This document shows, in pieces, positions 2,025-49,280 of a stretch of 49,280 nt of DNA (its first letter is position 1; each line of letters begins with the position of its first letter). The notes below the pieces were generated by a model. It made no database searches, was not told the origin of the DNA, and saw nothing but the letters and a program-made list of their open reading frames with translations. Made by a program: the position numbers and the translations under genes. This stretch comes from a virus. The stretch lies in the UHGV virus genome UHGV-0151084, one strand, 5' to 3'.

Positions 2025-3141
2025 CCTCTAACCCCGCATACTGGCAATTTATATTTCTCTCTCTGGCGACCTGCGTCTCTCCAACTACAGTAAATACAGG
2101 ACTTGATATTTCTAATCTTTTAGCCCCGGCATTTTTTAAACGTTGAATAATTTCATCTGGATTTATATCTCTTCCCATAACCGAACGTTGCCATTGTTTA
2201 TACTCATCAAGAGCTTTCTCAACCTCACTTTGAATTAACGTTGTTCTGTTTTTGTCCGATGAGTTAATCCAGTATTTAATTATTATATCGTATTCAATGC
2301 TCTCTGGTTTCTTAACAAGAACTTTATCTGTGAATGGTCGAATATTAGTTGCAGAGAGAACGCTATTTATCTGCTCTAATAGTTCATCAGAAGGTATATC
2401 CCCGTTCTCTAACAAAGAACGGATTTCTACAGTTCCGGGCGATGGTGTATATACATTCACATCTTTTATATTCTGATTGGCTGTTCTTGTCCAATATTTA
2501 TAAGAATCCTCCGGCCCTGCTGTAGACAGTTTTTCCGGCGACAGTTTTATTCTTTCAGCATAATTATCATCTGACTCTGTATCAGCACCAGAATTAGATG
2601 TTGTTAGATTCCTTACGCTGGAAACATACGGCAACGGAGTCACCAACTCGTTTATTTGCCCAGGTAAAAATCCATTCCCCGATAAGCCAGGTATAACAGC
2701 ATATCCTGAGACTATACCAACTGTTTTCCCAGCTGGTATTTCCAACAAAACATCTGTTTGGAAAATAACACTATTTCCAGTTGAAATTTGAGTGCCAGCA
2801 GGTATTGTATATATCCCCGATAATTTTGTTGACAGATTAAACTCAAATGTAGTCAAGGCAGATTGAGCTTCCAGCCTAGGCGTATCCGTCAGATAGCCTA
2901 TATGGTCGAGATATTCACCCCCACCATATGTAAGAAGGTTTTGTTTTGCAGAAAAATCGATAGCTTTTCTTTGCTGTATAATAATCTCACACAATGACAA
3001 GATGAATAATCTACGTGGATCAGCAGGTGCTAATGTTTCACCTGTTATACTCTCAAAAGCCCTGATTGAACGAGTTGTTATATCAGTCGGGTTAGAATCT
3101 GCGAAAGTAATATCTGGCAAACCACCGCGCGGCAACGTCAT
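2017..3141 (-). CDS. Baseplate wedge protein, gpJ-like
   Basis: 374 aa ORF in conserved V-W-J-I-H order of contractile-tail phages. Confidence 0.7.
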   Translation of the reverse strand: MTLPRGGLPDITFADSNPTDITTRSIRAFESITGETLAPADPRRLFILSLCEIIIQQRKAIDFSAKQNLLTYGGGEYLDHIGYLTDTPRLEAQSALTTFEFNLSTKLSGIYTIPAGTQISTGNSVIFQTDVLLEIPAGKTVGIVSGYAVIPGLSGNGFLPGQINELVTPLPYVSSVRNLTTSNSGADTESDDNYAERIKLSPEKLSTAGPEDSYKYWTRTANQNIKDVNVYTPSPGTVEIRSLLENGDIPSDELLEQINSVLSATNIRPFTDKVLVKKPESIEYDIIIKYWINSSDKNRTTLIQSEVEKALDEYKQWQRSVMGRDINPDEIIQRLKNAGAKRLEISSPVFTVVGETQVARERNINCQYAGLEDG

Positions 3142-3922: not shown

Positions 3923-4539
3923 GCCTGAGCCTCCGTTGTCGGAGCGTATTCCCCCTGAGCCGTGTGATGGTGGCCTTTAGATTTAATCCCATCAACATCT
4001 ATATCACCACCAACAACCTTAACATCCCCAGAAATTGTAGCTGCAACACCTCCAGCAGAAGATCCTTTCATTCCACCTTTGAAGGTTAGTAATCCTTCAA
4101 CTGTAGCATTTCCGGTAATGATGGTTTCTGGAGCATCAATAGTTACGGTTCCTGTAGCCTTAACGGTTACATCTCCGACAGCATCAACAAGGAGTAAATT
4201 AGATTCTCTGTCTACCTCAATACGAGTTCCGTTATTAAATCTAATGACGCGTTTATTAACAGTATTAGATGGCGGCTTCTGTGTTTCATCATAAAAACTA
4301 CCAAGAATAAAACCTTGTTGCGGCCCTGCGGGATGAAAGATACACAAAACTTGCTCACCAATATCTGGCATCCAGTAATCAGCATTCTTATCCGTATTTT
4401 TCACAATAACTGATAACTTTGCCGAAGTGACGTTATCCTGATCATCGAAAGTAACTCTTGCTGTAACATCACCATCATCAATATCAGAAACAACGCCAAC
4501 TCTTATAGTCTGACGTAATAATGTTTCTAAATCATTCAT
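3919..4539 (-). CDS. Baseplate spike protein, gpV-like
   Basis: 206 aa; glycine-rich beta-rich C-terminus (VKATGTVTIDAPETIITGNATVEG) as in gpV-family spikes. Confidence 0.65.
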   Translation of the reverse strand: MNDLETLLRQTIRVGVVSDIDDGDVTARVTFDDQDNVTSAKLSVIVKNTDKNADYWMPDIGEQVLCIFHPAGPQQGFILGSFYDETQKPPSNTVNKRVIRFNNGTRIEVDRESNLLLVDAVGDVTVKATGTVTIDAPETIITGNATVEGLLTFKGGMKGSSAGGVAATISGDVKVVGGDIDVDGIKSKGHHHTAQGEYAPTTEAQA

Positions 4540-4541
4540 AA

Positions 4542-5543
4542 TTAATACCCATTAATTACTCTTCGGACATCAATCGAGGTGGTATAACCACTAGCCCCAA
4601 TTGAATGCACAGCTTTCGATATAAGATATTTTCCAGAAAATGAACCGAATCCGTCCAGATTTATAGTTACACCAGCTACCAATCTGGTGTCTCCAACCAA
4701 TACTAAAGATCCTGTATTTTGATATCTATTTTTAAGCCGCAAAGCAGCCTTTGCCTTACGTTTTGCTTCATCTAAATTAGCTACCAGTTTTCTTATCTTA
4801 AGATTCGACCCTTCTTCTACGGATGGATCTACCCAAGTATACGAAAGCGACTTTCTTTTTTTAGGTACGCGATATTTGCACGTGCAACTTTTATACAAAT
4901 CTGTAGATTGTGTGCTAAAGCTATATCTGATTATCTCATCAATACCTAACGTAAGCGTAGCGATAGGATCTTTTTGCTCAAACATCTCTTGAGCAAATAT
5001 TATTAATTGGCTATCAGTGACCTTTAACGACAACCCTTCATCCTGGCATAGTCGATGGAGAAATTTTAAATCGCTTTCCTCCATTTGATCTTCACGCGCA
5101 TAATATGGATTACTATCACCATCAATAAGAAACAACAGTTCAAGGTTAGCTAATTTAGCTATAGAGGTTGCTATATCTTTAAGAGTTGTTTTTTCCCATG
5201 CATTACTTTTTAAATCACGTCTAATGCCTGATGAAACAGGAACAGAAACAGCAGTCACCTCAACAACAGAAGGTGGTCCAGAGCAAGTTATGCCATCTAC
5301 CTGGAATTTCCCGCACTCAAGGACGATTTGATTTATAGGCTTAAAGCTCAAATCAATAAAATCACCCTTTTTAGGTGTCCAGTCTCCAGACCATTTCCCA
5401 TCATCATTTTTTAATATAATAGAAATATCATCGACCTGACCATCTTCATTATCTGTATAAGACATTGACAAAACATCAGGTGACATATGAGCGGTAATAT
5501 TTACATTCTGATATATAACATCAAAAAGCGTTTTACGTAACAC
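4542..5543 (-). CDS. Tail protein, gpD-like
   Basis: 333 aa ORF immediately downstream of tape measure and X-like genes, as in P2/Mu-like tail modules. Confidence 0.55.
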   Translation of the reverse strand: MLRKTLFDVIYQNVNITAHMSPDVLSMSYTDNEDGQVDDISIILKNDDGKWSGDWTPKKGDFIDLSFKPINQIVLECGKFQVDGITCSGPPSVVEVTAVSVPVSSGIRRDLKSNAWEKTTLKDIATSIAKLANLELLFLIDGDSNPYYAREDQMEESDLKFLHRLCQDEGLSLKVTDSQLIIFAQEMFEQKDPIATLTLGIDEIIRYSFSTQSTDLYKSCTCKYRVPKKRKSLSYTWVDPSVEEGSNLKIRKLVANLDEAKRKAKAALRLKNRYQNTGSLVLVGDTRLVAGVTINLDGFGSFSGKYLISKAVHSIGASGYTTSIDVRRVINGY

Positions 5544-8981: not shown

Positions 8982-9503
8982 TTATAAACCTAAATCATCA
9001 CGAACGCTTTTTAATATATCTTCACCATCAAAGATACAAATAAAGTTCAACTTATCAATTTCCAAGACTTCTTTTCCATCAATAAATAATTTGATATAGA
9101 GAACTTCAAATTCATTCTCTGAATCAGTAGCCTTTGCCACCTGTAGCGAACCTAAATCCAGTTTTTTAGGGTTTAGCTTCATTGAAGCCCGAATAGGAAC
9201 CGTTTTATATTTTCCTGTTCCTGCATCATAAACCTGCTGGCTACCGCGAAAATCTACCTGATGCGATGAGGATAGAAATAATTTTGTACCAGCAGAGGTC
9301 AGAGTTCGCCATTTAAGAGAGACAGTCATTGGTTTGAAATGCCCCAGCGTTCCGCTCTCAAGCTCTCCAGCGATACCTGCACCACTAACAGTTTCTGTCA
9401 TCATCTCAATTGATGGCAGCTTTGCGTCAGCAACACCGATAATACGGTTTCCCTCACCGTATACTGTAAAGTTAATAAGTCTCTCAGGAATTTGATTGCT
9501 CAA
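8982..9503 (-). CDS. Tail tube protein (FII-like)
   Basis: 173 aa ORF between sheath and chaperone genes; size and position match contractile-tail tube proteins. Confidence 0.7.
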   Translation of the reverse strand: MSNQIPERLINFTVYGEGNRIIGVADAKLPSIEMMTETVSGAGIAGELESGTLGHFKPMTVSLKWRTLTSAGTKLFLSSSHQVDFRGSQQVYDAGTGKYKTVPIRASMKLNPKKLDLGSLQVAKATDSENEFEVLYIKLFIDGKEVLEIDKLNFICIFDGEDILKSVRDDLGL

Positions 9504-12492: not shown

Positions 12493-13536
12493 TTAAACCA
12501 CCTTAGCCACCAGATAGGCATCAGCCACACCAGGATTAGGCAGTGGAGATGACTTCATGGCAACATAACGGCCAGCCGGCTTACGAGTTACCCAGGTGTC
12601 TGGAACTCGTGGCGACTCAACAATCGTCAGAGTCTTTTCGGCGTCATCTACAAGCTCTACAGCACCATACAGCATCGTTCCTCGACCAGGAGAGCCAAAG
12701 AGGATCTTATCTTCCGGTACTAATGGTTCTGGTTTTCCTGTTTTATCATTGCGAATAAGTTCGTCGTAACCATAAAAATCGACACCTTCAAGATTGCCAT
12801 AATGAGTTACGCCTTCTTCTAACTCCTTAGGCTCAATATACCCAAGCTCTTTTCGGCGATTATCAAGATATTTAGTTACTGCTTCATTTTTAACGAAGGC
12901 ATCAACAACTTTTGCGCCCATTACGGCAACACGAGGTGTAAAACCTGAAGTTAGTGATACCCGACGTTTCCAGTTGCGAACATTGACCAACGGATCTGAT
13001 TTTGCTGCGCTCCATAAATCATCACCTGTCAGTTCAAGATATGGTTTATCTCCTTCCTCTTCAGGCCAAAAATAAACTGTGTCATCCACTCCTTCACCAA
13101 CAATATCAACCTGCCCCGTAAACAAGACTTGTGCACACATCCATTCTTCACGGCGGTTAACCATTTCATCAAGCTCAAGCAAATCTTTACCTAATTGCGC
13201 GGCGGCTCGTTCTGCTGGCGATTTTGCGTTGTAAATATTCTCACCCGGAAGCCTGTTTAAAAGCAGCTCGGCTGTTGTTACCAAATCAGGTGCAACAAGT
13301 GGTGGCTCCAGAGTTCTCGTTACAAAGCCGCGTCGCTCAACGGTTTTTGAGCCAAAACCTTTACCAACAAACGGAGCCATAGTACGGCCACCGCGAACAA
13401 AATCCAGATCAACTTTCTTTGTATTAAAGGTCTGAACACCAGGAAAAAAGGTACGAAGAAGAAAACGACGAGCCTTGAAATTCTGAATAACAGGCTCAAG
13501 CATTGTACGTCGTTCAAAAATATCAATATTCGACAT
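12493..13536 (-). CDS. Major capsid protein, lambda gpE-like
   Basis: 347 aa; N-terminal LLRTFFPGVQTFNTKKVDLDF pattern resembles lambda E family; preceded by decoration and protease genes. Confidence 0.8.
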   Translation of the reverse strand: MSNIDIFERRTMLEPVIQNFKARRFLLRTFFPGVQTFNTKKVDLDFVRGGRTMAPFVGKGFGSKTVERRGFVTRTLEPPLVAPDLVTTAELLLNRLPGENIYNAKSPAERAAAQLGKDLLELDEMVNRREEWMCAQVLFTGQVDIVGEGVDDTVYFWPEEEGDKPYLELTGDDLWSAAKSDPLVNVRNWKRRVSLTSGFTPRVAVMGAKVVDAFVKNEAVTKYLDNRRKELGYIEPKELEEGVTHYGNLEGVDFYGYDELIRNDKTGKPEPLVPEDKILFGSPGRGTMLYGAVELVDDAEKTLTIVESPRVPDTWVTRKPAGRYVAMKSSPLPNPGVADAYLVAKVV

Positions 13537-24997: not shown

Positions 24998-25115
24998 CGG
25001 GTTATCTCCGGTTTAGCCAGGGCGGGTATCGCTCGGTTTCGGGTATAACCATAGGAAATTTTTTCCCACCTGTAAAGCAATTTTTATATAAATATATAAT
25101 TATATAATTCTATGC
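24998..25115 (-). promoter_or_regulatory. Repeated promoter/leader module, copy 1
   Basis: About 105 bp near-identical to 32517..32640 and 42106..42225; contains TTTACA, AT-rich palindrome and conserved leader ending in RBS. Confidence 0.6.
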
Positions 25116-25697
25116 CACTTGCCAGAGAGCATCATGCAACTGGATACCTCCATTGCACTGGTTGCCCCAGCCATGCCAGCCATCAGGTAAATCACCGCGA
25201 GCAAACAGCTCAATACGGGGAACATCACCTAACAGCCTTACCAGCTTGTCACGAACCACATCAGGCTTCCGAGAATGCTCCAGACGAGGCGATGTAAACG
25301 ACTGAATGATCCCCGCATCAAGGCGGGTCGGCAGTTTGCCTTTTACCGCAAACAAGCAATCTTCACTGTTTGCACGAGTCATATGCCCCATCCCCATCAC
25401 CAGCTTATCTGGTTGTCGGCTACCACATTTGTTCCATGTGAAGCCCTTCATGGTCATCAGCCTGAATCCCCATGCTTTCACCACCAGCAACGCTTCTTCT
25501 GGCTGAGTCGGAACCCACCACATGGCCAACAAACACGATTCAGGATTAGCAAGCTGCCAGACAGGAATACGAGCAATATCCTCAGCTTTCATCGTTGGAT
25601 ACTTAAAACCAGCGCCACGATTCCCATCCTTACACTTGTCTTTGTATTCCCAGGGGGGATCTGCATAAATCAGATTAAACAATGCAATTGCCTCCAT
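25110..25697 (-). CDS. MT-A70 family N6-adenine DNA methyltransferase
   Basis: 195 aa; catalytic DPPW motif (LIYADPPWEY). Confidence 0.8.
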   Translation of the reverse strand: MEAIALFNLIYADPPWEYKDKCKDGNRGAGFKYPTMKAEDIARIPVWQLANPESCLLAMWWVPTQPEEALLVVKAWGFRLMTMKGFTWNKCGSRQPDKLVMGMGHMTRANSEDCLFAVKGKLPTRLDAGIIQSFTSPRLEHSRKPDVVRDKLVRLLGDVPRIELFARGDLPDGWHGWGNQCNGGIQLHDALWQVA

Positions 25698-26016
25698 GTT
25701 AGTTGTGTCTCCGGCGCTTATCTCCGGCAGTCATAACGCTGGCCAGCTCTACAGCAAACACAACGAAAAGGGCACTAACCAGACTGATTAATGCCCTTGC
25801 CTGTTGTGTGCCGGATATCGCCCGACAACGCTGTTTTGGTAACACGGCTACAGTTCCGTGCCGCTCCAGCTTTTACCCCTTTGCGGATAACAGGCCCTGC
25901 CTGTAACTTAGCCCCACGTTCGCCCGAAATGCGCACCAGGCACGCATAAAGATGAGCATAAAGATGAGCACGAAGAAGTAACTCCACCGCGCTTATCTTT
26001 ATGTGTGAGAGTGAAT

Positions 26017-26092
26017 TGGTGGCCCCTACCGGATTTGAACCGATGACCGTGCGATTATGAGTCGCCTGCTCTAACCACTGAGCTAAGGGGCC
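26017..26092 (-). tRNA. tRNA with anticodon CAU (tRNA-Ile2 / Met-type), CCA encoded
   Basis: Minus-strand 76 nt GGCCCCTTAGCTCAGTGGTTAGAGCAGGCGACTCATAATCGC...GGGGCCACCA folds as cloverleaf; acceptor, D and anticodon arms match the enterobacterial tRNA-Ile2 pattern as I recall it. Confidence 0.85.
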
Positions 26093-26261
26093 ATATTTGA
26101 TTTGTTTGTCTGGTGTGGCGCCGCGCACGAAAATCCCAGCCAATAAATTCAGGATTTTTGGGCGCGGCGGCATATCAGACAAACATGGTTGATGCGTGCG
26201 CCCATGAGAAAAGCGCATAGAATGTTGTAACTATATATTTATATAATTATAGAAATATATA

Positions 26262-26471
26262 TTACTTTCGGCAGTTGATTTCCCATGCCCTGTTATGAGC
26301 CAGAATATCTTTCTTTGTCTGGCGGTCCATAACATCGATGTCGTGATCAGTCAGGTAGATGGGCTTTACCCAATCACAGGCGGTATCAACCACCACCGGG
26401 ACGCTTCCACGACTCCCGCAGCTCGCGATCAACATCGTCATCAGCCATATGGTTAACACTCTGCTGTACAT
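26262..26471 (-). CDS. Outer-membrane spanin (Rz1-like lipoprotein)
   Basis: 69 aa with signal peptide and lipobox-like LIASC; overlaps the 3' part of the i-spanin in another frame. Confidence 0.6.
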   Translation of the reverse strand: MYSRVLTIWLMTMLIASCGSRGSVPVVVDTACDWVKPIYLTDHDIDVMDRQTKKDILAHNRAWEINCRK

Positions 26472-26664
26472 TCCCCACCTCTTTTGTCACTTCTATACGC
26501 CGCTCCGCAGTGGCTTTTACGGCGGCTGCATTCTCATTAATGCGCTGCTTTTCAGCTTCATCTTCGGCCTTTTCTCGCCCCTTCATACGACCAAAACCAA
26601 ACGCGCCGAATGCAACCAATATAATTGTGCCAATAAATGACAAAACGGCCTTCAAACCAGTCAT
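26386..26664 (-). CDS. Inner-membrane spanin (Rz-like)
   Basis: 92 aa; N-terminal TM helix then charged coiled-coil; downstream of endolysin. Confidence 0.6.
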   Translation of the reverse strand: MTGLKAVLSFIGTIILVAFGAFGFGRMKGREKAEDEAEKQRINENAAAVKATAERRIEVTKEVGNVQQSVNHMADDDVDRELRESWKRPGGG

Positions 26665-27203
26665 ACCACCACTCGCTCTTTCATCCAGCCGTAGACAAAC
26701 GACTCATTAGCCTCGCGCTTCTCCGCCAACTCCAGATAGCGTTCGCCCTGCGTACAGTTCAGCGACGTCAGCATCACCCGTTCGCCGTCTTTTCCCCGAT
26801 TCCCAAGATAAGCACGCAGCGCATTAATGGTACGTGGACCGATTCGTCCGTCTGCATCCAAATCGGGATACAGCTTCCCGCGCAGGTTGAACACATTCAG
26901 CCAGCGTTGAAGCATTTTTGACGCCACTGTTGGCCCCATGTTCACCCCCGTGTCACACAGCTCTGCGGCAATATCAGAGGATAATGCGGCAACCTGATCA
27001 AAGCGTGGTCCGTACCAGTAATCAGCCTCAAGGATTTCCAGTGCCTGTTCGCGGGTTAAATCGCGCATATCGCCACGGTATCCATGAGCACGGGCAGTGC
27101 TCTGAGTAATGCCCCACTTTGTTGGGCCTCCCTTGTCGTCAGGGTGATCCACATAGCCGCCCTCTTTTCCAAGAATGCTGTTAAAAATCTCATCTTTGGT
27201 CAT
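26661..27203 (-). CDS. Endolysin, GH108-like N-terminal domain plus peptidoglycan-binding domain
   Basis: 180 aa; EGGYVDHPDDKGGPTKWGIT motif characteristic of GH108 phage lysozymes. Confidence 0.8.
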   Translation of the reverse strand: MTKDEIFNSILGKEGGYVDHPDDKGGPTKWGITQSTARAHGYRGDMRDLTREQALEILEADYWYGPRFDQVAALSSDIAAELCDTGVNMGPTVASKMLQRWLNVFNLRGKLYPDLDADGRIGPRTINALRAYLGNRGKDGERVMLTSLNCTQGERYLELAEKREANESFVYGWMKERVVV

Positions 27204-27522
27204 GATTAAATCCTAATGCGTCAACTATCCGCGCCAGATTGCCCCTGAAATACAGAACAACGATGCAGATAATCAGATTTCCAATAACCACCAGCCAGTG
27301 GGATTCTTGATAAAGACCGAACACGTAACGGAAGGGAACATTGGCGTATACAATGACGTAGATATAAGCCAGAAAGGAAACAAATGGACGATGCCTTGAG
27401 TCTTTCCGTCGATAAAACATCAGCGCCATTACTATTACTGTGCAAAGCACCGCATTAATCAGTGCTGACGGGTCACTGCTTACCATTTGAACCCCCTCCA
27501 CGTAAGCGGGAAAGCATTCCAA
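27190..27522 (-). CDS. Lysis-associated membrane protein (holin/antiholin-like)
   Basis: 110 aa with 3 predicted TM segments between holin and endolysin. Confidence 0.45.
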   Translation of the reverse strand: MECFPAYVEGVQMVSSDPSALINAVLCTVIVMALMFYRRKDSRHRPFVSFLAYIYVIVYANVPFRYVFGLYQESHWLVVIGNLIICIVVLYFRGNLARIVDALGFNHDQR

Positions 27523-27868
27523 AGATGCTACCGAGATCCTGGCTGTTTACGAACGTGAGGATTTTAATTGTCAATGCAGCCACAATAACCGCACCAAGCG
27601 CATCCAGAGGACGATCGTTGTAGCTGGTCCATTTGGCAAGAAATGAGCCAACTAACGGCGCTCCAATCACTCCAACAATGAACGATGTAAAGAAATAGCC
27701 AATCAGCTTGAGACGGCTAATATTCACCGCTGTAGCAACATAGAAAACAGCGCCAGCAAATGCCCCGAATACAACGCCGTAATCAATACCAGTTGCAATA
27801 CCAAAAACACTGGCACCCATCAGGCCACCAGCAGCAACGGCCGTACCGGAAATTGGTTCTGCTGACAT
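27473..27868 (-). CDS. Putative holin
   Basis: 131 aa, multiple glycine-rich TM helices, first gene of lysis cassette. Confidence 0.55.
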   Translation of the reverse strand: MSAEPISGTAVAAGGLMGASVFGIATGIDYGVVFGAFAGAVFYVATAVNISRLKLIGYFFTSFIVGVIGAPLVGSFLAKWTSYNDRPLDALGAVIVAALTIKILTFVNSQDLGSIFGMLSRLRGGGSNGKQ

Positions 27869-27881
27869 TGAAATCCTCGTT

Positions 27882-27912
27882 AAAAAAAAAGCCCCGCCGA
27901 AAAAGGCAGGGC
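27882..27912 (-). terminator. Rho-independent terminator immediately upstream of lysis cassette
   Basis: Minus-strand RNA hairpin GCCCUGCC/GGCGGGGC (one G-U) followed by U9. Confidence 0.6.
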
Positions 27913-28254
27913 TTCATAAAGCAACAAATTACGCGGTAATCGCTTAACGCAGTTTTACTACGTTAAATGAAACACTACACCCAGTTACCACCTAAAACAA
28001 GGTTTTCCCATAAAAAAACCTTCAAATCGTGGTTAATTGATCAATAAAAAAACAATACTCAACTTTTTACCAAACGAACATCCCGGCCAGGACTTCCATA
28101 ATATTCGCCGATATGCCACTGCTTAAGTTGAGTAATCTTCTCCAACTTAACTCCCACAGAATCCAATTTCTGCCATGTTTTCGGTTGTATGTGCCTCATT
28201 ACCCGCTCTGAATATCTGAATACTGCTCGTAATCGCATGGCTTCTCACTACAGC

Positions 28255-31093: not shown

Positions 31094-31392
31094 GCCACAG
31101 CCCCTCTCAACGGCTTAACTTTGGCTAATAAGGTGTTAAACAACATGGAGTTAGGATTCATGCCAAATGGCAATTCCGGTTTAGCGGAGTAGTACAGGCA
31201 ACCATTTATTTTCCTGGTTGTTATCTGTCCTTCGGCAACCATGCTTCTCAGTCTGCAACGCATAGAGTTCTGCGACACACCAATGTGCTCCGCGATTACG
31301 TCCACTTTTGAACATGGGTGATCGGTCAGGAAATTAATCACATCTTGGGGGTTAATAATTTTGCGTTTCATTGTCGAGGCGTCCTTATACAT
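31090..31392 (-). CDS. Putative winged-helix DNA-binding protein
   Basis: 100 aa; HTH-like segment VDVIAEHIGVSQNSMRCRLRSMVAEGQI. Confidence 0.45.
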   Translation of the reverse strand: MYKDASTMKRKIINPQDVINFLTDHPCSKVDVIAEHIGVSQNSMRCRLRSMVAEGQITTRKINGCLYYSAKPELPFGMNPNSMLFNTLLAKVKPLRGAVA

Positions 31393-31448
31393 TTATATAA
31401 ATATATAATTCTATATACGGCGGGAGACATCCCGCCGTAGGCTTACTG

Positions 31449-32516: not shown

Positions 32517-32640
32517 CAGATTTCTCCGGTTTAACCAGGGCGGGTATCGCTCGGTTTCGGGTATAACCTTAGGAAATTTTTTCCCACCTGTAAAGCACTT
32601 TTTATATAAATCTATAATTATATATTTATAGATTTTCGAT
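32517..32640 (-). promoter_or_regulatory. Repeated promoter/leader module, copy 2 (directly downstream of Q-like gene)
   Basis: Near-identical to copies at 24998..25115 and 42106..42225. Confidence 0.6.
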
Positions 32641-34545: not shown

Positions 34546-35036
34546 TCCTCAAGCCTCCCAAGTGCTGAACGCCGGGCGTTGCTAATCTCCTTATGAATCA
34601 GCTCGATATCGCTGGAATCTTTATTCTTAAGCTCCAGCACGGTAATCGCATCACGAACCTCTGAAACGGTTACGTGTGAGTGTTTCCAGCGAGCAATGAA
34701 TCGCGGACCGCGTAGATTGCAACGCTCCGCAGGCATCCCCAGCTCAGAGAAAACCGCTTTCAGCCTTGATAAGCAGTTAACAGGGAGGTTCCCTTTGATC
34801 TTGTTCTGCCGAACCGATGTGCCATCGCTACGCTGGCGCTGACGTTCGGCAAAATCTGCCGCCCATTGCTGGACGTTAATCCGGCCTTCCGAATACGCCA
34901 CCAGCAGCGTCAGGTTATCCGCACGAGGGAATCTCTCGAAGCGATACCAGGCACCAATCAGTGATGACGTAAAGCCAAACTTTCTGGCAACACCAATTTG
35001 GCCTCCATTTTCGTCAACCCACTCCTGAAAGGTCAT
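34542..35036 (-). CDS. Cro-like early regulator
   Basis: 164 aa, N-terminal HTH, divergent from CI-like repressor across an operator-rich intergenic region. Confidence 0.5.
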   Translation of the reverse strand: MTFQEWVDENGGQIGVARKFGFTSSLIGAWYRFERFPRADNLTLLVAYSEGRINVQQWAADFAERQRQRSDGTSVRQNKIKGNLPVNCLSRLKAVFSELGMPAERCNLRGPRFIARWKHSHVTVSEVRDAITVLELKNKDSSDIELIHKEISNARRSALGRLEE

Positions 35037-35055
35037 TTAACGAACTCCAGTTAAA

Positions 35056-35173
35056 ACCACGATATGTGGTATTAAAACCACATATCGTGAGTTTTTCAAT
35101 GGGCGAAACAAAAAATAACCTTCTATTTGTGGTCCACCTCTCGTCTTACCATGTGAAAACCACTAAATGTGGT
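35056..35173. promoter_or_regulatory. Immunity operator cluster (ACCAC-N5-GTGGT sites at 35056-35070, 35077-35091, 35159-35173)
   Basis: Three 15-bp inverted-repeat sites in the divergent Cro-like / CI-like intergenic region. Confidence 0.65.
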
Positions 35174-35210
35174 AATGTATAAATAACCCACCATTCACGA
35201 TTGATGAGAC

Positions 35211-35867
35211 ATGAAAAGCAACGACGAGAACATCAAGAAAGAAATAGGTCTGCGCATTCAGACTCTACGGAAACAATCCGGCATGACTGCCGGAGATCTC
35301 CAGCAAGTCACTGGAATAGGCTTAAGCACCTTGCAGAACTATGAGGCCGGATTAAGACAACCATCTATACCTGCCATCAAGAAAATCGCGCACGCCCTGA
35401 AAGCATCAGCGCCTTATATCGCGTGCTTAACAGATAACCCGTTCCCACCCCAGAATACTAACGCTCCTGTTATTCCTGGGCTTGTAGCTATAAAAAATGA
35501 CATAGCATCGCACGCCGGAGAAAAGCCAGTGCTGGCGATAGAACAGGAGATTCTACGAAGCAAGAACATCAACCCATCGTCTCTGTCAGTTCTCCAGAGC
35601 AACGATGAGTTAATGTCACCAACAATATCCCCTGGCTCCCAAGTCCTGATTGATACAGACGATACAGAGATTCATGAGGGGATCTATGCCCTTGAAGACA
35701 GAAATGGCCTGGTTGTTTTGAGGCACTGTAGAGTCATACCGGGTGACAATGCTGTTATGCTGTCAACCGAAAGGGATGCTGAAATGAACACTAAGCATCT
35801 GAATAACGAGGAATTTAAGCGTTATAAAGTTCTTGGCCGCGTAGTTAGTGTTGTCAACTGGTTATGA
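35211..35867 (+). CDS. CI-like repressor (XRE HTH + S24 LexA-like peptidase domain)
   Basis: 218 aa; N-terminal HTH (LQQVTGIGLSTLQNYEAG), C-terminal S24-like region. Confidence 0.8.
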   Translation: MKSNDENIKKEIGLRIQTLRKQSGMTAGDLQQVTGIGLSTLQNYEAGLRQPSIPAIKKIAHALKASAPYIACLTDNPFPPQNTNAPVIPGLVAIKNDIASHAGEKPVLAIEQEILRSKNINPSSLSVLQSNDELMSPTISPGSQVLIDTDDTEIHEGIYALEDRNGLVVLRHCRVIPGDNAVMLSTERDAEMNTKHLNNEEFKRYKVLGRVVSVVNWL

Positions 35868-36364: not shown

Positions 36365-36460
36365 TTATAGATTTATATAATTATATAAAACGCTTTTCAT
36401 CCGCCAAAAAGTTGGTTATGCTTACCTCGTTCTATAAATATAGATTTATATAATTATATA
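36365..36460. repeat. AT-rich iterons (ATAGATTTATATAATTATATAA x2) upstream of parA; candidate partition site / operator
   Basis: Two copies at 36365-36390 and 36431-36460; a third between parA and the ParG-like gene at 37141-37170. Confidence 0.5.
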
Positions 36461-36484
36461 ACCAAACACATGGAGTCTCGACAA

Positions 36485-37138
36485 ATGACTATCTCTGTAG
36501 GTATTTTCAACGGAAAAGGCGGCGTAACCAAATCAACAATTGCCCGTGCTTTAGCAGTTGCTTATGCAAAGGCCGGCTGGAATGTATGCCTGATCGATAT
36601 GGATGTGCTTAACGGAACGGTAACGCGTTGGGTACAACGCAGAATGGCCAACAATATCGAACCTGCAATCGCGGCGCAGCCGTGCGGCACGCCATCACAA
36701 GTCCAGAAAATCATCGAATCAGAAGTATACGACCTGGTTATCGTCGATGGCGGTGCCTACGCATCTGAATCAGTACCGAAGCTCTCTGAATTTCTGGATA
36801 TGGTTATTTTGCCAACCAGATTCTCTACCGATGACCTGGAAACCACCGTTAACACAGCTCATGGCATCGTTAAAAAGGGTGTGCCAATCAAGAAAATTTG
36901 CATGGTGTTCTCAGGCGCGGCTGAAAACGAAGCCGACTACATTGAAGCCCAAGAGTACCTGGCTAATACGCCATACTTTGTTGTCGATAAGTACATTCCC
37001 CACAAGCCAGCTCTGAGCAAAGCTCAGGATAAGGGCTTAAGCCTCATTGAATGCTCATACGTTGCGCCACGCAAAAAGGCAGACGACGTTATTCAGGGGA
37101 TTATCAACCAGCTTGAGGCTCTGACTACTGCCGCGTAA
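36485..37138 (+). CDS. parA: ParA-family partition ATPase (small, type Ib-like)
   Basis: Deviant Walker A GKGGVTKST; start placed at ATG 36485 with GGAG RBS. Confidence 0.8.
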   Translation: MTISVGIFNGKGGVTKSTIARALAVAYAKAGWNVCLIDMDVLNGTVTRWVQRRMANNIEPAIAAQPCGTPSQVQKIIESEVYDLVIVDGGAYASESVPKLSEFLDMVILPTRFSTDDLETTVNTAHGIVKKGVPIKKICMVFSGAAENEADYIEAQEYLANTPYFVVDKYIPHKPALSKAQDKGLSLIECSYVAPRKKADDVIQGIINQLEALTTAA

Positions 37139-37181
37139 TATATAATTATAGTTTTATAGATTTATATAAGAGGGGATACAC

Positions 37182-37652: not shown

Positions 37653-37676
37653 AAAAAAGGCCCCCGAAGGGGCCTA
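37653..37676. terminator. Hairpin terminator (GGCCCC-CGAA-GGGGCC) with A/T runs
   Basis: Perfect 6-bp GC stem; T-run on minus strand. Confidence 0.55.
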
Positions 37677-38096
37677 ATCGCTACTTGCTGCTAATGTTTA
37701 TCGTCACATTCAGAGCGTTATCAGTAATCTTCCAACCCTCCCCATGTGGCGTAAACAAAGCTCCAGTAACAACGATAAAAATACACATACAGTATTTTTT
37801 CATTGTATGGCCCTTACAGGCCGTTTCACGGCATCCCCACCGACGAAAACAACGCGAGAGCAAGCACGGCTGCTTGTGCTTGCATGTACGGCAACAGGAA
37901 ATCCTCCCCTAAAGTCGGTGCCCGGGTGCGAATCGGCGGGAAGGTCCACAGGTATTTTACGATTATTTTAAGATTAGTAATAGGAAAGAAATTAAACGAA
38001 AAAAACAGTTTATTTTCACAAAATCAGTAACCTACCCACAATCTGTGAGTTTGCTGACACAACAAGAACCACAATTTTTTGATGTATAATAGTGGA

Positions 38097-38291: not shown

Positions 38292-38396
38292 TGAATGCGC
38301 CATTGGTGGACACTTTCCGAGCCGTAGCAAAATCTACGGTCGGGATTAGCCTCCTGAATAACACGATGGCGCATACCGCGTTAGCGGTTTTTTTAT
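38292..38396 (+). ncRNA. Candidate structured RNA upstream of antirepressor operon
   Basis: TTGAC at 38286, internal hairpin CCGTAG/CTACGG, terminator ACCGC-GTTA-GCGGT + T7; shares GATTAGCCTC with the downstream leader. Confidence 0.3.
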
Positions 38397-38556
38397 GCGT
38401 AGAGCACTGTTACGCCCAAATTATGGTGGGTCGTACAGGGGCGGAGAAATCCGCGCCGGTTCGTCATTGTGTCCGGTAAGGCTAACCCTGTACGGCTCAC
38501 CACCATTTGATTAGCCTCGAATGGCGGTGATAGTTCCATATACTGGAGATATCACA

Positions 38557-38748
38557 ATGACAAACCTACCCCATGACTATTACGTCAACCTCGTAAAGAT
38601 CCTTCTCAAGAAAGCCTCATACGCCGATAAATTCCGCCTGGCTGAAATCATCGAGCGCGAAGCTATGCGCATCGCCAGCAACGATAACGCTGTTTCTGAC
38701 GCAAAAATCTCCCTCGTAACCAAAGTAGTTATGGGAGGTGCAAAATGA
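38557..38748 (+). CDS. Small protein translationally coupled to antirepressor
   Basis: ATG 38557 with GGAG RBS; stop overlaps antirepressor start (ATGA). Confidence 0.4.
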   Translation: MTNLPHDYYVNLVKILLKKASYADKFRLAEIIEREAMRIASNDNAVSDAKISLVTKVVMGGAK

Positions 38749-40013
38749 AAACGCTTCCGACCGTTAACACCCTACAGCCTATCCTGCATAACCAAATCCC
38801 TGTCATTACTACCGAGTTACTGGCACAGCTTTACGGCGTATCTCCTGTACGCATTCGACAAAATCATCATGAGAATAAGGAACGCTTCATTGAAGGTAAG
38901 CACTACTTCAAAATTGAAGGTAACGAACTTCGAGAGTTAAAGCACAAAGTGACTCAAGATAATGATGTGAAGAACAAAAACTCTTTAAGAGATTCAGTTA
39001 ATGACGCCCCCTCTAAAAGAGAGAGCGACGAGCACAGAGTAGTTTTAAACTACTCTGTTAACCACAAGGTAACTAAAAGTCACTCTGTGAAAATCGCCCG
39101 TAACGTTCGCTCCCTCATTCTCTGGACAGAACGCGGGGCTGCACGTCACGCCAAAATGCTTGAAACTAACCAAGCGTGGGATGTGTTCGAACGGCTGGAA
39201 GACTGCTACTTCAACCAGAACGCGCAAACGGCCGCGACCGTAACCGTCTCGCCAAACAATGCTCGTGAGGTTGTCGATACGCTCAACGCCAAACCGATGT
39301 TTTACATTAAGGTGTGCAATAACGAGCCACTCACAACCTCGGCCGATGTTGCCCAGGCATTCAGCACCACAAACAATTCCATCGTTATGGCCATCGATGC
39401 GTTACGCATTCCTCGCACAGCTGCGGCGCGTCATTTCTTTAAAGAGCAACGACCGTTGGAAGGAAGCGACCGCGAAATAACAATCTATCGCATGACAAAA
39501 GACGGATTTACCTTGCTCATGGAGAGCATCGACGGTCCAGGCGTAAAAGATATCAAGCTGGCCTACATTGAAGCCTTTAACGCTATCAGCAGCGTGTTAA
39601 AAACACAGTACGAGCGTGATCTGGCTAAACGACTGTACCAAGAAAAAACGATTATCCGCGCGGCAACAGAGCATAATCGGCTATTAACGGAACCGAACTA
39701 CCGCAAGACACTAATCAAAGAGTTTGACAAGGCGACGGAGAAAACTAAAGCGGCGCTAAGTCTGCCAGCAATGACTCAGGAAAATGTGATATCAGCCTTA
39801 CTTCTTGATCTGCTCAGGAACGCCAGAGCACTTATCAGCTTTGACGAGGACCTGAATCCTCAGCTCAAGCTACTACCACCGACAGGCAAAGTAGTCGACC
39901 AGGCTGATCACAACAGCATACTCAGCGTTCTGGATGCAAACCTGCCAGCCAGGACACTACAGGATCTGATAAAAACATGTGCTGATAAGCTGGCACAGAA
40001 AAGCAGACCATAA
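38745..40013 (+). CDS. Antirepressor (ORF6N-type N-terminal + Rha-type C-terminal domains)
   Basis: 422 aa; N-terminal IPVITTELLAQLYGVSPVRIRQNHHENKERFIEGKHYFKIEG; central TTSADVAQAF...TIYRMTKDGFTLLM resembles Rha. Confidence 0.7.
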   Translation: MKTLPTVNTLQPILHNQIPVITTELLAQLYGVSPVRIRQNHHENKERFIEGKHYFKIEGNELRELKHKVTQDNDVKNKNSLRDSVNDAPSKRESDEHRVVLNYSVNHKVTKSHSVKIARNVRSLILWTERGAARHAKMLETNQAWDVFERLEDCYFNQNAQTAATVTVSPNNAREVVDTLNAKPMFYIKVCNNEPLTTSADVAQAFSTTNNSIVMAIDALRIPRTAAARHFFKEQRPLEGSDREITIYRMTKDGFTLLMESIDGPGVKDIKLAYIEAFNAISSVLKTQYERDLAKRLYQEKTIIRAATEHNRLLTEPNYRKTLIKEFDKATEKTKAALSLPAMTQENVISALLLDLLRNARALISFDEDLNPQLKLLPPTGKVVDQADHNSILSVLDANLPARTLQDLIKTCADKLAQKSRP

Positions 40014-42105: not shown

Positions 42106-42225
42106 CGGGTTATCTCCGGTTTAACCAGGGCGGGTATCGCTCGGTTTCGGGTATAACCTTAGGAAATTTTTTCCCACATGTAAAGCACTTTTTATATAAA
42201 TCTATAATTATATAATTCTGTGAGC
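42106..42225 (-). promoter_or_regulatory. Repeated promoter/leader module, copy 3
   Basis: Near-identical to copies 1 and 2; preceded upstream by a terminator at 42227-42254. Confidence 0.6.
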
Positions 42226-45536: not shown

Positions 45537-46091
45537 TCAATGATTCCCAGCCGGAAACCTGCGGTAAAGCGTGGATAAGGTAACATCGAAGATAATCGCT
45601 ATCCGCTTACGTGAAACACCATTCGCAATAAGCCTTCCGATCTGTTCCCATTGCTCTGGGGCCAATTTTGAGCGGCGTCCTCCTATCCTGCCATTAGCCC
45701 TTGCCACCGCCAATCCTGCACGCGTTCTTTCAATCATATTTTCCCGCTCCATCTCTGCGACTGCACTCAGCATCGTGTAGGCAAAGCGGCCAATTGAAGT
45801 GCTAATTTTTATCCCTTCCGTAATCGAAATAAACTCAATGTTGTTTGATAAAAAATGGTTAAGTAAATCAACAAGATGAATCAGAGAACGCCCCATTCGA
45901 TCCAGCTTCCAGACAATAACCGTATCGCCCGGCCGTAACACCTTCAGTAGCTTATCAAGCCCTGGTCGTTTTGATTTAGCACCGGATATTTTATCTTCAA
46001 AAATCCGGTCACATCCTGAACTCCTGAGCGCCTCCAGTTGTAATTCCAAATTCTGGTCAAAAGTTGACACCCTCGCATAACCATATTGCAT
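45537..46091 (-). CDS. Serine DNA invertase, Gin/Cin/Hin family
   Basis: 184 aa; YARVSTFDQ catalytic-serine motif, C-terminal HTH; 64 bp from gix-like site B. Confidence 0.85.
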   Translation of the reverse strand: MQYGYARVSTFDQNLELQLEALRSSGCDRIFEDKISGAKSKRPGLDKLLKVLRPGDTVIVWKLDRMGRSLIHLVDLLNHFLSNNIEFISITEGIKISTSIGRFAYTMLSAVAEMERENMIERTRAGLAVARANGRIGGRRSKLAPEQWEQIGRLIANGVSRKRIAIIFDVTLSTLYRRFPAGNH

Positions 46092-46205: not shown

Positions 46206-47186
46206 GTGCAAAAGACAGGCGATACCTTGTCCGGTGGACTTACTTTTGAAAACGACTCAATCCTTGCCTGGATTCGGAATACTGACTGGGCAAAGATTGG
46301 ATTTAAAAATGATGCCGACAGCGACACTGATTCATACATGTGGTTTGAAACAGGCGACAACGGCAATGAATATTTCAAATGGAGAAGCAAACAAAGCACC
46401 ACAACAAAAGACCTGATGAATCTTAAATGGGATGCTTTGTATGTTCTTGTCAATGCCATTGTAAATGGCGAAGTCATATCAAAATCAGCAAACGGCCTAC
46501 GTATTGCTTATGGTAATTACGGATTCTTTATTCGTAATGATGGTTCAAATACATACTTCATGTTGACAAACTCCGGTGACAACATGGGGACTTATAACGG
46601 ATTAAGGCCATTATGGATTAATAACGCTACTGGCGCTGTTTCGATGGGGCGTGGCCTTAATGTTTCAGGGGAGACACTTTCAGACCGTTTTGCTATTAAC
46701 AGCAGTAATGGTATGTGGATTCAGATGCGCGATAACAACGCTATCTTTGGGAAAAATATAGTTAACACTGATAGCGCTCAGGCGTTGCTTCGCCAGAATC
46801 ACGCCGACCGAAAGTTCATGATAGGTGGACTGGGGAACAAGCAATTTGGCATCTACATGATTAATAACTCAAGGACAGCCAATGGCACCGATGGTCAGGC
46901 GTACATGGATAATAACGGGAACTGGCTTTGCGGCTCGCAAGTTATTCCCGGAAACTATGGCAATTTTGACTCCAGATATGTGAAAGATGTTCGACTTGGT
47001 TCACAGCAATATTATGGAGTGAACAACTGGCAAACATGGAATTTCCAGTGCCCGTCAGGTCATGTATTGTCTGGTATTAATGTTCAGGATACAGGGTCCA
47101 ACTCTGCCGATAATATAGCGGGCGTTTATTACAGACCCGTTCAAAAGTATATAAATGGCACCTGGTATAATGTAGCGAGCGTTTAA
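46206..47186 (+). CDS. Tail fibre variable C-terminal cassette (Sv'-like), currently not joined to the constant region
   Basis: Frame is open from 46101 through site B; first residues [15 protein letters not shown] identical to the end of the constant gene at the window start. Confidence 0.75.
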
Positions 47187-47187
47187 T

Positions 47188-47715
47188 ATGATGCACTTAA
47201 AGAACATAAAAGCGGGTAACGCTAAAACACTGGAACAGTATGAGTTAACAAAGAAACACGGAGTTATCTGGCTTTACTCTGAGGACGGAAAAAACTGGTA
47301 TGAGGAAGTGAAAAACTTTCAGTCAGACACAATAAAGATTGTTTACGATGCAAATAATATTATTGTCGCCATCACTAAAGATGCCTCCACGCTTAACCCT
47401 GAAGGTTTTAGCGTCGTTGAGGTTCCAGATATTACAGCCAACCGCCGCGCTGATGATTCAGGAAAGTGGATGTTTAAGGATGGAGCTGTAGTTAAACGGA
47501 TTTATACGGCAGACGAACAGCAACAACAAGCCGAATCACAAAAGGCCGCATTGCTTTCCGAAGCTGAATCAGTCATCCAGCCGCTGGAACGCGCTGTCAG
47601 GCTGAATATGGCAACAGACGAGGAACGCACACGACTGGAAACATGGGAACGCTACAGTGTTCTGGTCAGCCGTGTGGATACGGCAAATCCTGAATGGCCA
47701 CAAAAGCCTGAGTAA
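47188..47715 (+). CDS. Tail fibre assembly protein (Tfa, U'-like)
   Basis: 175 aa; conserved Tfa pattern (NWYEE...[14 protein letters not shown]...KWMFKDG). Confidence 0.8.
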
Positions 47716-47721
47716 AAATTA

Positions 47722-47740
47722 AGGCCCGATATCGGGCCTT
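47722..47740. terminator. Bidirectional hairpin between convergent Tfa genes
   Basis: AGGCCCGATATCGGGCCT palindrome. Confidence 0.5.
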
Positions 47741-47743
47741 CTC

Positions 47744-48277
47744 TCATTCTGGTTGTTCGGGAAACGTTACTGGCAGGCTGGAGGTGTCTGTGGATTCGAC
47801 TTTCTGCGCGTAGAGCATCCACTCGGTTAATTTTTGTTTATTCTCGTCGGAAATGATGCCCAGCCGTAGCTGTGAGTCCCATAGCTGGGTTTTATCCCTG
47901 ACAAGTTGCAACAGGCTTTGCTTTTCATTCTCTGCCTGCTGCCTCTGTTCCTCCTCGGTATAAGTTCGCTTTATCACTACGCCATCTTTGAACATCCATT
48001 TACCCGAAATATCAGCCCGGCGATTTGCTGTAATATCAGGTAATTCAACGACGCTTGCGCCTTCTGGATTAATTGCTGAAACATCCTTTTCAATACAAAT
48101 AATAACGCCGTTGTGGTCATAGACCATTTTCAACGTATCAGGCTGAAAGTTCTTTTGTTCCTCATACCAGTTTTCCCCATCCTCTGTATAAAGCCATTTG
48201 ATGTTAAATTGTTTCGTTAGCTGGTATTGCTCTTTTGTTTTAGGGTTGCCAGCAGTAATATTTTTTAAGTGCATCAT
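47744..48277 (-). CDS. Tail fibre assembly protein (Tfa, U-like)
   Basis: 177 aa paralog of 47188..47715. Confidence 0.8.
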   Translation of the reverse strand: MMHLKNITAGNPKTKEQYQLTKQFNIKWLYTEDGENWYEEQKNFQPDTLKMVYDHNGVIICIEKDVSAINPEGASVVELPDITANRRADISGKWMFKDGVVIKRTYTEEEQRQQAENEKQSLLQLVRDKTQLWDSQLRLGIISDENKQKLTEWMLYAQKVESTDTSSLPVTFPEQPE

Positions 48278-48279
48278 AA

Positions 48280-49280
48280 TTAAATACTCCCCGCGTTATA
48301 CCACGTTCCATTAATGCAATACTGAATTGGCCTTGCCTGAGTTGTATCAATTAATTCATCACGGTTTCCGTTAACTGACCCCGTAACGACATAACCTGAC
48401 CTGTCAGACCAGCCGGGACCATTCCATGTCTGAACAGATGACAGACCGCCAAGACGAATACCTGTAATAAACCTTGAGTTACATTCTGCCTGCGTATATG
48501 CACCAACATCTCCCGCTGATGGCTTACGTGTTGTGGTGTAAATTTCTGACCAGTCAGCTTCGAATCCGTAACCATCACGCGCTGAACGATAAAAAATACC
48601 GCCGTTCCTGTAATTCACACGGAACTGTACGGCAGGGCAACTCCCCGTATTCATATTGAAGTGGAGGATTAATGTCGATGCGCCACCAATATTTGCGTTA
48701 TAGACCCCGCTATTCCAGTTCCAGCCAACAGCTTTATCATTTCCGACAGTGCTTCCTGTTTGCCCTAAAGCAAATGCAGGCTGCTGGTTTTTCGTGTTGT
48801 AGTCTCGTCGCCAGCCAGGAGCATAAGCATCACCATGATTAATATAAGTGAATTGAGCGTTAGTGATTCCGCCACCGCTGGAAGTGCTCGGGGTGGTTAC
48901 ACGGATGGTCATGGCTCCTTTATTACCCATAACCTCAATAACGCAACCTGCAAGATGAATAGTTCCACAGCCAGTATCGGTAATAATTTTATTATTGCCG
49001 TATGACCATGAACATTTGCACATCCAGTATGGGTGATTGAATGCCCCTTGAGAATCAAGCCATTCAATCAATTGTGCCGTTGTCCAGTTCCCTGCCCCTG
49101 TACTAATAGCACTGTGAAAAGCACGACATGCACCAATATTTTTTGTGAAGGTATCTTTTCCAGGAATATCTGCGCCGTTCTGGTTTTTCTGTAATGCGCC
49201 AGAAGCCTTGTTTATCGTTTCCTGCAAACCGAGGTTTTTGCGAATTGCCTCTGTGTCGTCTGAACGATATTTTTTCCCGC
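48280..49280 (-). CDS. Tail fibre variable C-terminal cassette (Sv-like); frame continues through site C beyond the window end
   Basis: Track start at 49227 is a TTG artefact; frame stays open upstream (…KKYRSDDTEAIRKNLGLQET…). Confidence 0.75.
   Translation of the reverse strand, partial: GKKYRSDDTEAIRKNLGLQETINKASGALQKNQNGADIPGKDTFTKNIGACRAFHSAISTGAGNWTTAQLIEWLDSQGAFNHPYWMCKCSWSYGNNKIITDTGCGTIHLAGCVIEVMGNKGAMTIRVTTPSTSSGGGITNAQFTYINHGDAYAPGWRRDYNTKNQQPAFALGQTGSTVGNDKAVGWNWNSGVYNANIGGASTLILHFNMNTGSCPAVQFRVNYRNGGIFYRSARDGYGFEADWSEIYTTTRKPSAGDVGAYTQAECNSRFITGIRLGGLSSVQTWNGPGWSDRSGYVVTGSVNGNRDELIDTTQARPIQYCINGTWYNAGSI
49206..49280. repeat. Right arm of inverted repeat (truncated by window end)
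   Basis: Reverse complement matches 46120-46194. Confidence 0.8.
49219..49244. other. gix-like recombination site C (TTCCTGCAAACCGAGGTTTTTGCGAA)
   Basis: Same orientation as site A, inverted relative to site B. Confidence 0.6.

Follow-up and report, generated by a model that had tools for sequence, protein, structure and literature searches.

Which amino acid is carried by the product of a lone tRNA gene that lies beside the lysis genes of an Escherichia coli phage-plasmid, and why would such an element keep a tRNA gene at all? We addressed this question with the virus genome UHGV-0151084, a stretch of 49,280 nucleotides (nt) that is termed the window here and that corresponds approximately to the whole of a phage-plasmid of ~48 kb. 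ARAGORN finds a single tRNA in the whole window, namely a 76 nt gene on the minus strand at positions 26017-26092, with the anticodon CAT at 26057-26059 and an encoded 3′ CCA. The Rfam tRNA model RF00005 matches positions 26020-26092 of the same strand with 67.0 bits (gathering score 29; E 1.6e-12), and the only non-canonical position that it flags is the pair 27:43. The gene is therefore located exactly where a first-pass annotation of this DNA had placed a CAU-anticodon tRNA; the strand, which that annotation had left unstated, is minus. The tRNA gene is real and intact. An open reading frame (ORF) lying across it (25775-26218) was discarded as spurious, and the gene set was replaced by genes mapped from RefSeq. 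We are highly confident that this tRNA is of the Ile2 type and, judging from its sequence, it almost certainly reads the rare isoleucine codon AUA. With a probability of about 0.7, we propose that it is a functional minor tRNA-Ile2 that would supplement the host supply during lytic growth.

The identity of the tRNA is most readily seen by alignment with reference tRNA genes, which were drawn from annotated records (ileX, metT, metU, metV and trnI of phage P1). The ileX gene, which encodes E. coli tRNA-Ile2, is identical to the window tRNA at positions 1-42 and 66-76, and at 68 of 76 positions (89.5%) overall. This identical span includes the entire acceptor stem, the D arm, the anticodon loop (CUCAUAA in both genes) and 9 of the 10 anticodon-stem nucleotides, in line with the earlier suggestion of an Ile2 pattern in the acceptor, D and anticodon arms. 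All eight differences are located at positions 43 and 44 (U43A and U44C) and in the T arm. The T loop carries G59A, and in the T stem G49-C65 has become A-U, U51-A63 has become C-G and C50-G64 has become U.G. Because two of these pairs are changed on both sides and the third remains a U.G pair, the T stem is kept.

Moreover, the features by which the relevant host enzymes recognize tRNA-Ile2 are all present. The acceptor stem (GGCCCCU/AGGGGCC) is the same as that of ileX and contains both C4-G69 and C5-G68, the identity elements that matter most to E. coli TilS, which contacts and requires them (PMC12514573; PMC11947777). The tRNA also carries the full bacterial Ile identity set (A73, C4-G69, U12-A23, C29-G41, A35, U36, A37 and A38) as listed for isoleucyl-tRNA synthetase (IleRS) in Table 1 of PMC9976931. 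On a copy with 100% identity, and on all further matches listed for complete E. coli genomes, the RefSeq label is tRNA-Ile. The NCBI annotation pipeline runs tRNAscan-SE. Version 2 of this program has dedicated isotype models that tell Ile2, Met and fMet apart (PMC8450103).

If the tRNA reads AUA, the codon content of the element becomes the next point of interest. Codons were counted in 70 genes, which were placed on the window with the help of a 98.5%-identical plasmid annotated in RefSeq, and in ORFs in the gaps; the constant and variable parts of the tail fibre were counted separately, given the copy of a crossover-like site at both window ends. The whole element contains 217 ATA codons among 13,997 (15.5 per 1000), which amounts to 24.8% of its Ile codons, and among codons that are rare in the host ATA is the highest in absolute number. 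Two samples of annotated K-12 genes give 2.4 per 1000 (sample 1, 42 genes) and 3.35 per 1000 (sample 2, 34 genes), and the genome-wide value for E. coli is 4.9 per 1000 (PMC12514573). The difference between the element and K-12 sample 1 is highly significant (Fisher p = 2e-35).

Within the element, ATA is used at 22.4 per 1000 codons in the tail module, 14.4 in head and packaging genes, 13.6 in maintenance genes, 10.0 in early genes, 9.0 in the middle region and 8.0 in lysis genes. Head and tail genes combined reach 19.8 per 1000 compared with 10.8 for all other genes (odds ratio 1.85, Fisher p = 1.4e-5), such that the expectation of AUA use above that of the host, and higher in late genes than in early ones, is borne out. 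The extremes are found in the gene for baseplate protein J (2017-3141; 19 of 374 codons), in gpD (12 of 333) and in a 114-codon tail gene with seven, and all five tandem ATA-ATA pairs fall within tail genes. The first-pass annotation had drawn attention to at least 9 ATA codons in the tail-fibre constant region of roughly 463 codons, which it took to be AT-rich. That count stands (10 of 470), but the segment itself is not AT-rich (46.6% GC). It is the baseplate and tail genes that are truly AT-rich, with 35-42% GC and up to 51 ATA per 1000 codons. In the AT-rich baseplate, tail, tape-measure, terminase and tail-fibre genes, AUA use is 4-10 times that of E. coli genes. Late genes also differ sharply from each other in ATA content, the most abundant proteins avoiding AUA although the element carries the tRNA.

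These characteristics suggest a route by which the tRNA could act. The gene would be transcribed from the minus strand, either within a late transcript from the lysis side or from a promoter in the AT-rich region upstream, and the host's tRNA-processing enzymes would excise the tRNA from its precursor. TilS of the host, recognizing C4-G69 and C5-G68, would then turn C34 into lysidine, and host IleRS would charge the tRNA bearing lysidine-AU with isoleucine, so that AUA is decoded and not AUG. When the phage-plasmid goes lytic, the scarce host tRNA-Ile2 would be topped up, with gene dosage rising along with copy number, and the AT-rich genes named above could be translated without stalling at AUA. 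We infer expression, lysidine formation, charging and a benefit to the phage from these features, and we consider it probable, at or slightly below the level given above for the reading as a whole, that codon supplementation is the main selected function of the tRNA.

Several observations weigh against this proposal, some of them bearing on the codon link and others on the tRNA gene itself. The Arg codons AGA and AGG are enriched 7-9 fold over the host sample, and the element carries no Arg tRNA. In addition, ATA frequency drops with rising gene GC content (Spearman rho -0.46), and because AUA in this way tracks the AT content of genes, its use may be a by-product of the composition of the tail module. 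The AGA/AGG enrichment and the AT tracking make the codon link correlative and not a proof of function. Furthermore, the gene for the major capsid protein (12493-13536) has no ATA among 347 codons and that for the tail tube (8982-9503) has one among 173; since the most abundant virion proteins avoid ATA, the total demand on the tRNA would be limited. Salmonella relatives of the element that do not have the tRNA still use ATA at 12.7 per 1000 codons.

As for the gene itself, the pairs 28:42 to 31:39 are as in ileX, and at 27:43 there is a G-A mismatch where the host has G.U. This mismatch might hinder modification, given that anticodon-stem substitutions can impair E. coli TilS (PMC11947777). 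P1 trnI also has G-A at this pair and a divergent Ile2 tRNA in contig L027 has A-C, and so 27:43 is non-Watson-Crick in every version seen. The divergence of the T arm is unlikely to block modification, because E. coli TilS efficiently modifies the heterologous tRNA-Ile2 of B. cenocepacia if C4-G69 and C5-G68 are present (PMC12514573). In the interval from the lysis genes to the tRNA, no sequence resembling a sigma-70 promoter was detected. Finally, the tRNA is no more conserved among close relatives than its 5′ flank (2 of 76 variable positions versus 9 of 330), a sample too closely related to show purifying selection.

Comparison with relatives places the tRNA in a mosaic non-coding slot, corresponding to the interval between the lysis genes and a gene for an MT-A70 methyltransferase, for which three arrangements exist among the relatives compared. 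The type 1 slot, which consists of an AT-only palindrome, a long hairpin, the tRNA and a small hairpin, is found in the window, in E. coli plasmids, in Yersinia phages and in nine IMG/VR contigs. In the type 2 slot the palindrome and hairpin are followed by a module of ~138 nt (termed modA), a spacer and a second module of ~131 nt (termed modB). Its carriers are two Salmonella plasmids (pAR-0407-1 and Weltevreden plasmid 3) and contig L028, and no tRNA occurs anywhere in these records. The type 3 slot of L027 has the palindrome, the hairpin, modA, a divergent CAU tRNA and modB. The L027 tRNA is an Ile2 variant that is 85.5% identical to the window tRNA, with the same acceptor stem and a compensatory C31-G39 pair.

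The segment at ~25931-26100, which holds the tRNA and its 3′ hairpin (25941-26007), is absent from the Salmonella relatives, and the 3′ flank of the tRNA is matched only in type 1 loci that carry the tRNA. The upstream palindrome (26232-26261) is conserved in the Salmonella plasmids without the tRNA, and the long hairpin (26103-26185) has the same fold in a tRNA-less Salmonella relative and is also conserved in L027, with three compensatory pairs among four sequences. Of the 72 complete E. coli genomes with the element, 67 or more contain the tRNA region, as do nine of nine closely related IMG/VR contigs, and across ten distinct type 1 sequences the only variable tRNA sites are 26 and 59, both of which are unpaired. 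The tail module of the tRNA-carrying element uses ATA at 22.4 per 1000 compared with 16.3 in the tRNA-less Salmonella relative (p = 0.04 in a single comparison, in the predicted direction), and the GC content of that module is ~40% and 46%, respectively. The Salmonella relatives, and L027 with its divergent copy, provide natural comparisons.

With this evidence at hand, other explanations for the gene can be weighed. That the product is an elongator Met tRNA reading AUG might be concluded from the name tRNA-Met, which is given by ARAGORN and by three GenBank records of Yersinia phages (OR545053-OR545055; 4007-4082 in locus L002), and a CAU tRNA-Ile2 that does not receive lysidine can indeed accept methionine (PMC9976931). 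Both of these labels are based on the CAU anticodon alone, however, and the identical sequence is tRNA-Ile in RefSeq. The elongator genes metT and metU match the tRNA at only 57 of 77 positions (74%) compared with the 68 of 76 seen for ileX, and the alignment with them shows that the pairs U4-A69 and A5-U68, which serve methionyl-tRNA synthetase (PMC9976931), are not in the tRNA, their places being taken by the two pairs that TilS recognizes. An elongator Met tRNA is accordingly very improbable. An initiator tRNA was rejected as well, given an identity to metV of only 47 of 77 (61%) and the absence of the initiator marks of that gene, namely the C1/A72 mismatch and the three G-C pairs at the base of the anticodon stem. 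The least probable explanation of all is a leftover attachment site, in which a fragment or copy of a tRNA marks a place of integration. In many integrative phages, attP contains the 3′ portion of a tRNA. The window gene has its full length and every arm in place, and its 3′ half does not occur a second time in the window. The element replicates as a plasmid through an IncFII-type RepA and ParA, the sole recombinase that it encodes is a serine invertase (45537-46091, minus strand), and no integrase is annotated. On these grounds an attachment-site remnant was excluded.

Two further explanations accept a tRNA-Ile2 and differ over what it is for. It could be a back-up for host tRNA-Ile2 that is depleted or cleaved by a defence nuclease, and so serve counter-defence and not codon compensation. 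This idea follows a general hypothesis for phage tRNAs (PMC10264068), and the gene does differ from the host gene in the T arm and at positions 43 and 44 and shares a phage lineage with P1. The equally enriched but unsupplemented AGA and AGG codons also speak for it, since codon bias alone then fails to explain why only Ile2 is carried. Phage tRNAs that evade a nuclease are proposed to show substitutions in the anticodon loop, at the site where the nuclease recognizes or cuts the host tRNA (van den Berg et al. 2023, PMC10264068). The whole anticodon loop and all but one of the anticodon-stem nucleotides are instead identical to ileX, which would mean nuclease evasion without its proposed signature, and the codon-use data already provide a sufficient reason for the tRNA. 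We know of no nuclease that targets tRNA-Ile2, and no search for one was made. We regard the back-up role as unlikely. Slightly more credit, yet still little, is due to the view that the tRNA is dispensable mosaic cargo that entered a slot prone to recombination from a P1-like phage or from a host, with little or no benefit to the phage or with a role mainly in aiding the AT-rich acquired genes of the lysogen. The mosaic nature of the slot, in which Salmonella relatives carry other non-coding modules, fits this view, as do the palindrome and hairpin that are conserved with or without the tRNA and the lack of greater conservation relative to the 5′ flank. Nevertheless, nearly all E. coli carriers keep the tRNA, no disabling change is seen in it while compensatory changes maintain its T stem, and the divergent Ile2 tRNA in the same slot of L027 suggests repeated or long-term retention of this isotype. 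Supplementation of host tRNA-Ile2 for AUA decoding remains our preferred reading.

The closest phage relative of this tRNA gene is P1 trnI (tRNA-Ile2, anticodon CAT; NC_005856, 70933-71008), with 72 of 76 positions identical and substitutions at positions 6, 26, 50 and 59. The two genes share the phage-specific residues A43 (forming G27-A43), C44, A49-U65 and C51-G63. P1 and the window element, each with a single Ile2 gene, are both E. coli phage-plasmids with a myovirus tail, an invertible tail-fibre segment and an immunity region with a C4 antisense RNA. Homology to P1-type plasmids ends ~3-11 nt beyond the ends of the tRNA, and so only the tRNA is held in common and not a cassette. Moreover, P1 trnI belongs to the C1-controlled ban operon together with a tRNA-Asn and a tRNA-Thr, whereas the window tRNA stands alone between the lysis cassette and the methyltransferase gene.

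Similar comparisons can be made with host and other phage genes. The E. coli genes ileX and ileY, whose products are modified to carry lysidine, have the same length and an encoded CCA, and the identical span covers every known TilS and IleRS determinant. Unlike them, the window gene belongs to a mobile element that increases in copy number when it is induced. Ile2-type tRNAs are also found in the ileZ-argN-argO cluster of lambdoid and Shiga toxin (Stx) prophages, and large virulent phages such as T4 likewise carry one. Like the window tRNA, ileZ is closely preceded by a terminator and is located near the lysis genes, where the late region begins. These phage tRNAs are of the same isotype and have the same proposed role in reading a host-rare codon, but the Stx phages add two Arg tRNAs (for AGA and AGG) to Ile2, whereas the window element has none despite equal enrichment of AGA and AGG.

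Matches to the tRNA were found in 1129 phage records, including 124 Stx2a-converting phages and many phages of Klebsiella, Salmonella and Aeromonas; the copies in the lambdoid, Stx and large virulent phages show lower identity to the window tRNA, in the 80-90% band. A complete E. coli genome has a median of two matching places and up to 14. Ile2-type tRNAs with a CAU anticodon are widely labelled tRNA-Met or left unannotated in phage records, including those of several P1-like phages. Genes of this kind occur in P1 and in other phages as well, so that the feature is an ordinary one, of a type already known and correctly labelled in RefSeq. The correct label for it is tRNA-Ile2 and not tRNA-Met as in OR545053-OR545055 and many other phage records. 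Besides P1 with its trnI, the window thus represents another temperate phage-plasmid whose tRNA fits exactly the host-rare codon that it over-uses most. Members of this family are fairly frequent in E. coli, and the importance of the finding beyond correct annotation is small; the only mildly novel thread is the conserved leader of palindrome and hairpin with its swappable non-coding cargo.

The surroundings of the tRNA, all on the minus strand, agree with its earlier description as a neighbour of the lysis cassette. Five lysis genes occupy 26262-27868 upstream of it, as defined by PHROG matches, a lipobox and the RefSeq annotation of the 98.5%-identical plasmid. They encode a holin (27473-27868), a second holin (27190-27486), a GH108 endolysin (26661-27203), an Rz-like i-spanin (26386-26664) and an o-spanin (26262-26471) that overlaps the i-spanin and has the lipobox LIASC in its translation; the PHROG matches of these proteins have E values from 1e-32 to 1e-53. 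The tRNA begins 170 nt past the stop codon of the o-spanin gene. A terminator scan identified a hairpin resembling an intrinsic terminator at 27888-27915 (11-bp stem with seven GC pairs and the T9 tail TTTTTTTTT), 20 nt upstream of the start of the first holin gene. This hairpin splits the early leftward operon from the region of lysis, tRNA and late genes, and these genes would therefore need antitermination or a promoter of their own. The position of the tRNA after this terminator and the lysis genes is compatible with late transcription.

Between the o-spanin gene and the tRNA lie the two conserved parts of the slot. The AT-only palindrome centred on TATAATTATA (26232-26261) directly follows the o-spanin stop codon and is located 140-169 nt 5′ of the tRNA, in agreement with the AT-rich palindrome that had been noticed just upstream; this holds in the tRNA's own orientation. 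The long hairpin at 26103-26185, detected as an inverted-repeat pair with 34-nt arms (-40.3 kcal/mol, z -4.87), ends 10 nt ahead of the 5′ end of the tRNA and would be part of any precursor transcript that contains the tRNA. It has no U tail and so is not an intrinsic terminator, and no Rfam family corresponds to it; it could mark a site of processing or act as a regulatory leader. Directly 3′ of the tRNA, a repeat search and folding revealed a hairpin at 25941-26007 with two tandem copies of the 12-nt sequence GCATAAAGATGA. A second terminator-like hairpin, found by terminator scan and folding (25768-25798; 14 pairs, with the U-rich tail TTCGTTGTGT), sits between the tRNA and the MT-A70 gene and may end or attenuate the tRNA transcript. 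The MT-A70 DNA methyltransferase gene (25110-25697; PHROG_359, E 1e-102) is the first protein gene downstream of the tRNA, and it is followed on the same strand by a ParB/Srx-like gene and by packaging, head and tail genes.

The two modules that occupy the slot in relatives were located at 4270-4625 (minus strand) in locus L009, at 1745-2215 in L028, and at 1843-1980 and 2085-2210 in L027. Neither modA nor modB has an ORF annotation or an Rfam match, and they may be unclassified RNAs of phage-plasmids. Just 5′ of the MT-A70 start, in a conserved stretch, Rfam gave only sub-threshold matches resembling rydB (25-29 bits, cut-off 50; L009 3995-4058 on the minus strand, L027 2427-2486 and L028 2425-2488, equivalent to ~25700-25760 in the window), which are probably due to chance or to a small leader hairpin. 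A search of viral contigs with the MT-A70 protein left 80 loci, most of which share ~78% protein identity. A scan of 29 of these ~78% loci revealed no tRNA, palindrome, hairpin, modA or modB, and loci of this kind are therefore uninformative about the slot. It is a tentative and rather doubtful idea that the slot is a dedicated site for non-coding RNA cargo, in which structured RNAs are exchanged behind a conserved leader of palindrome and hairpin. Should modA and modB prove to be functional RNAs, a common regulated leader would drive the expression of several accessory RNA genes, and the tRNA would be just one among them.

The palindrome of the slot is one of a dispersed set. The AT-only TATAATTATA palindromes occur as seven exact copies, where 0.1 are expected, and one variant, all of them intergenic. 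In addition to the copy at 26232-26261, they are located at 25079-25109, 31391-31410, 32613-32630, 36371-36390, 36444-36461, 37136-37150 and 42203-42217. Three of them flank parA, and several are followed by a minus-strand gene at a distance of ~80-120 nt. The palindrome is absent from the region at 35036-35211 that separates the repressor from the divergent early operon, and an exact-pattern scan of genome contigs yielded no match. Because the element encodes ParA and three proteins with ParB/Srx domains, these palindromes may be dispersed operator or centromere-like sites for some regulator. Under the doubtful idea of a cargo slot with functional modA and modB RNAs, they would mark a genome-wide regulatory circuit in a little-studied family of phage-plasmids.

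Long stretches of the window are 98-99% identical to circular E. coli plasmids of 47-49 kb and to the Yersinia phages vB_YpM_39, vB_YpM_41 and vB_YpM_44. In addition to its replication and partition genes, the element carries a CI-like repressor and a virion module with a contractile tail. A count based on the terminase gene places it in 72 of 5426 complete E. coli genomes, among them that of the reference strain ATCC 25922, whose plasmid has 48,488 bp. Two candidate relatives were rejected: the pseudolysogenic Yersinia phage HQ103 is an unrelated phage of 32 kb, and pSLy3 belongs to the SSU5 supergroup.

The serine invertase gene adjoins the invertible tail-fibre segment, and the crossover-like sequence TTTCCTG[T/C]AAACCGAGGT is present at both window ends (1-60 and 49200-49280). 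The tail-fibre gene is split over these ends, with its constant part at 1412-3 and its variable C-terminal part at 49227-48280, and an alternative C-terminal part is found together with assembly genes at 46206-48277. A simple circular join of the window ends does not restore the tail-fibre frame (a frame shift and stop codons result), and the repeats of the invertible segment are probably where the contig was broken.

Three further matches at the Rfam gathering level were obtained in the window, namely to ryfA (37653-37949, minus strand; 143.5 bits), isrK (38321-38394, plus strand; 65.7 bits) and C4 antisense RNA (38419-38507, plus strand; 70.8 bits). The C4 and isrK matches are located just upstream of a gene for a fusion of ORF6N and Rha domains (38745-40013), in a layout like that of P1 immI (c4/ant). 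The ryfA homologue lies beside parA, an unexpected place on a plasmid-prophage, and may be a module of the addiction type.

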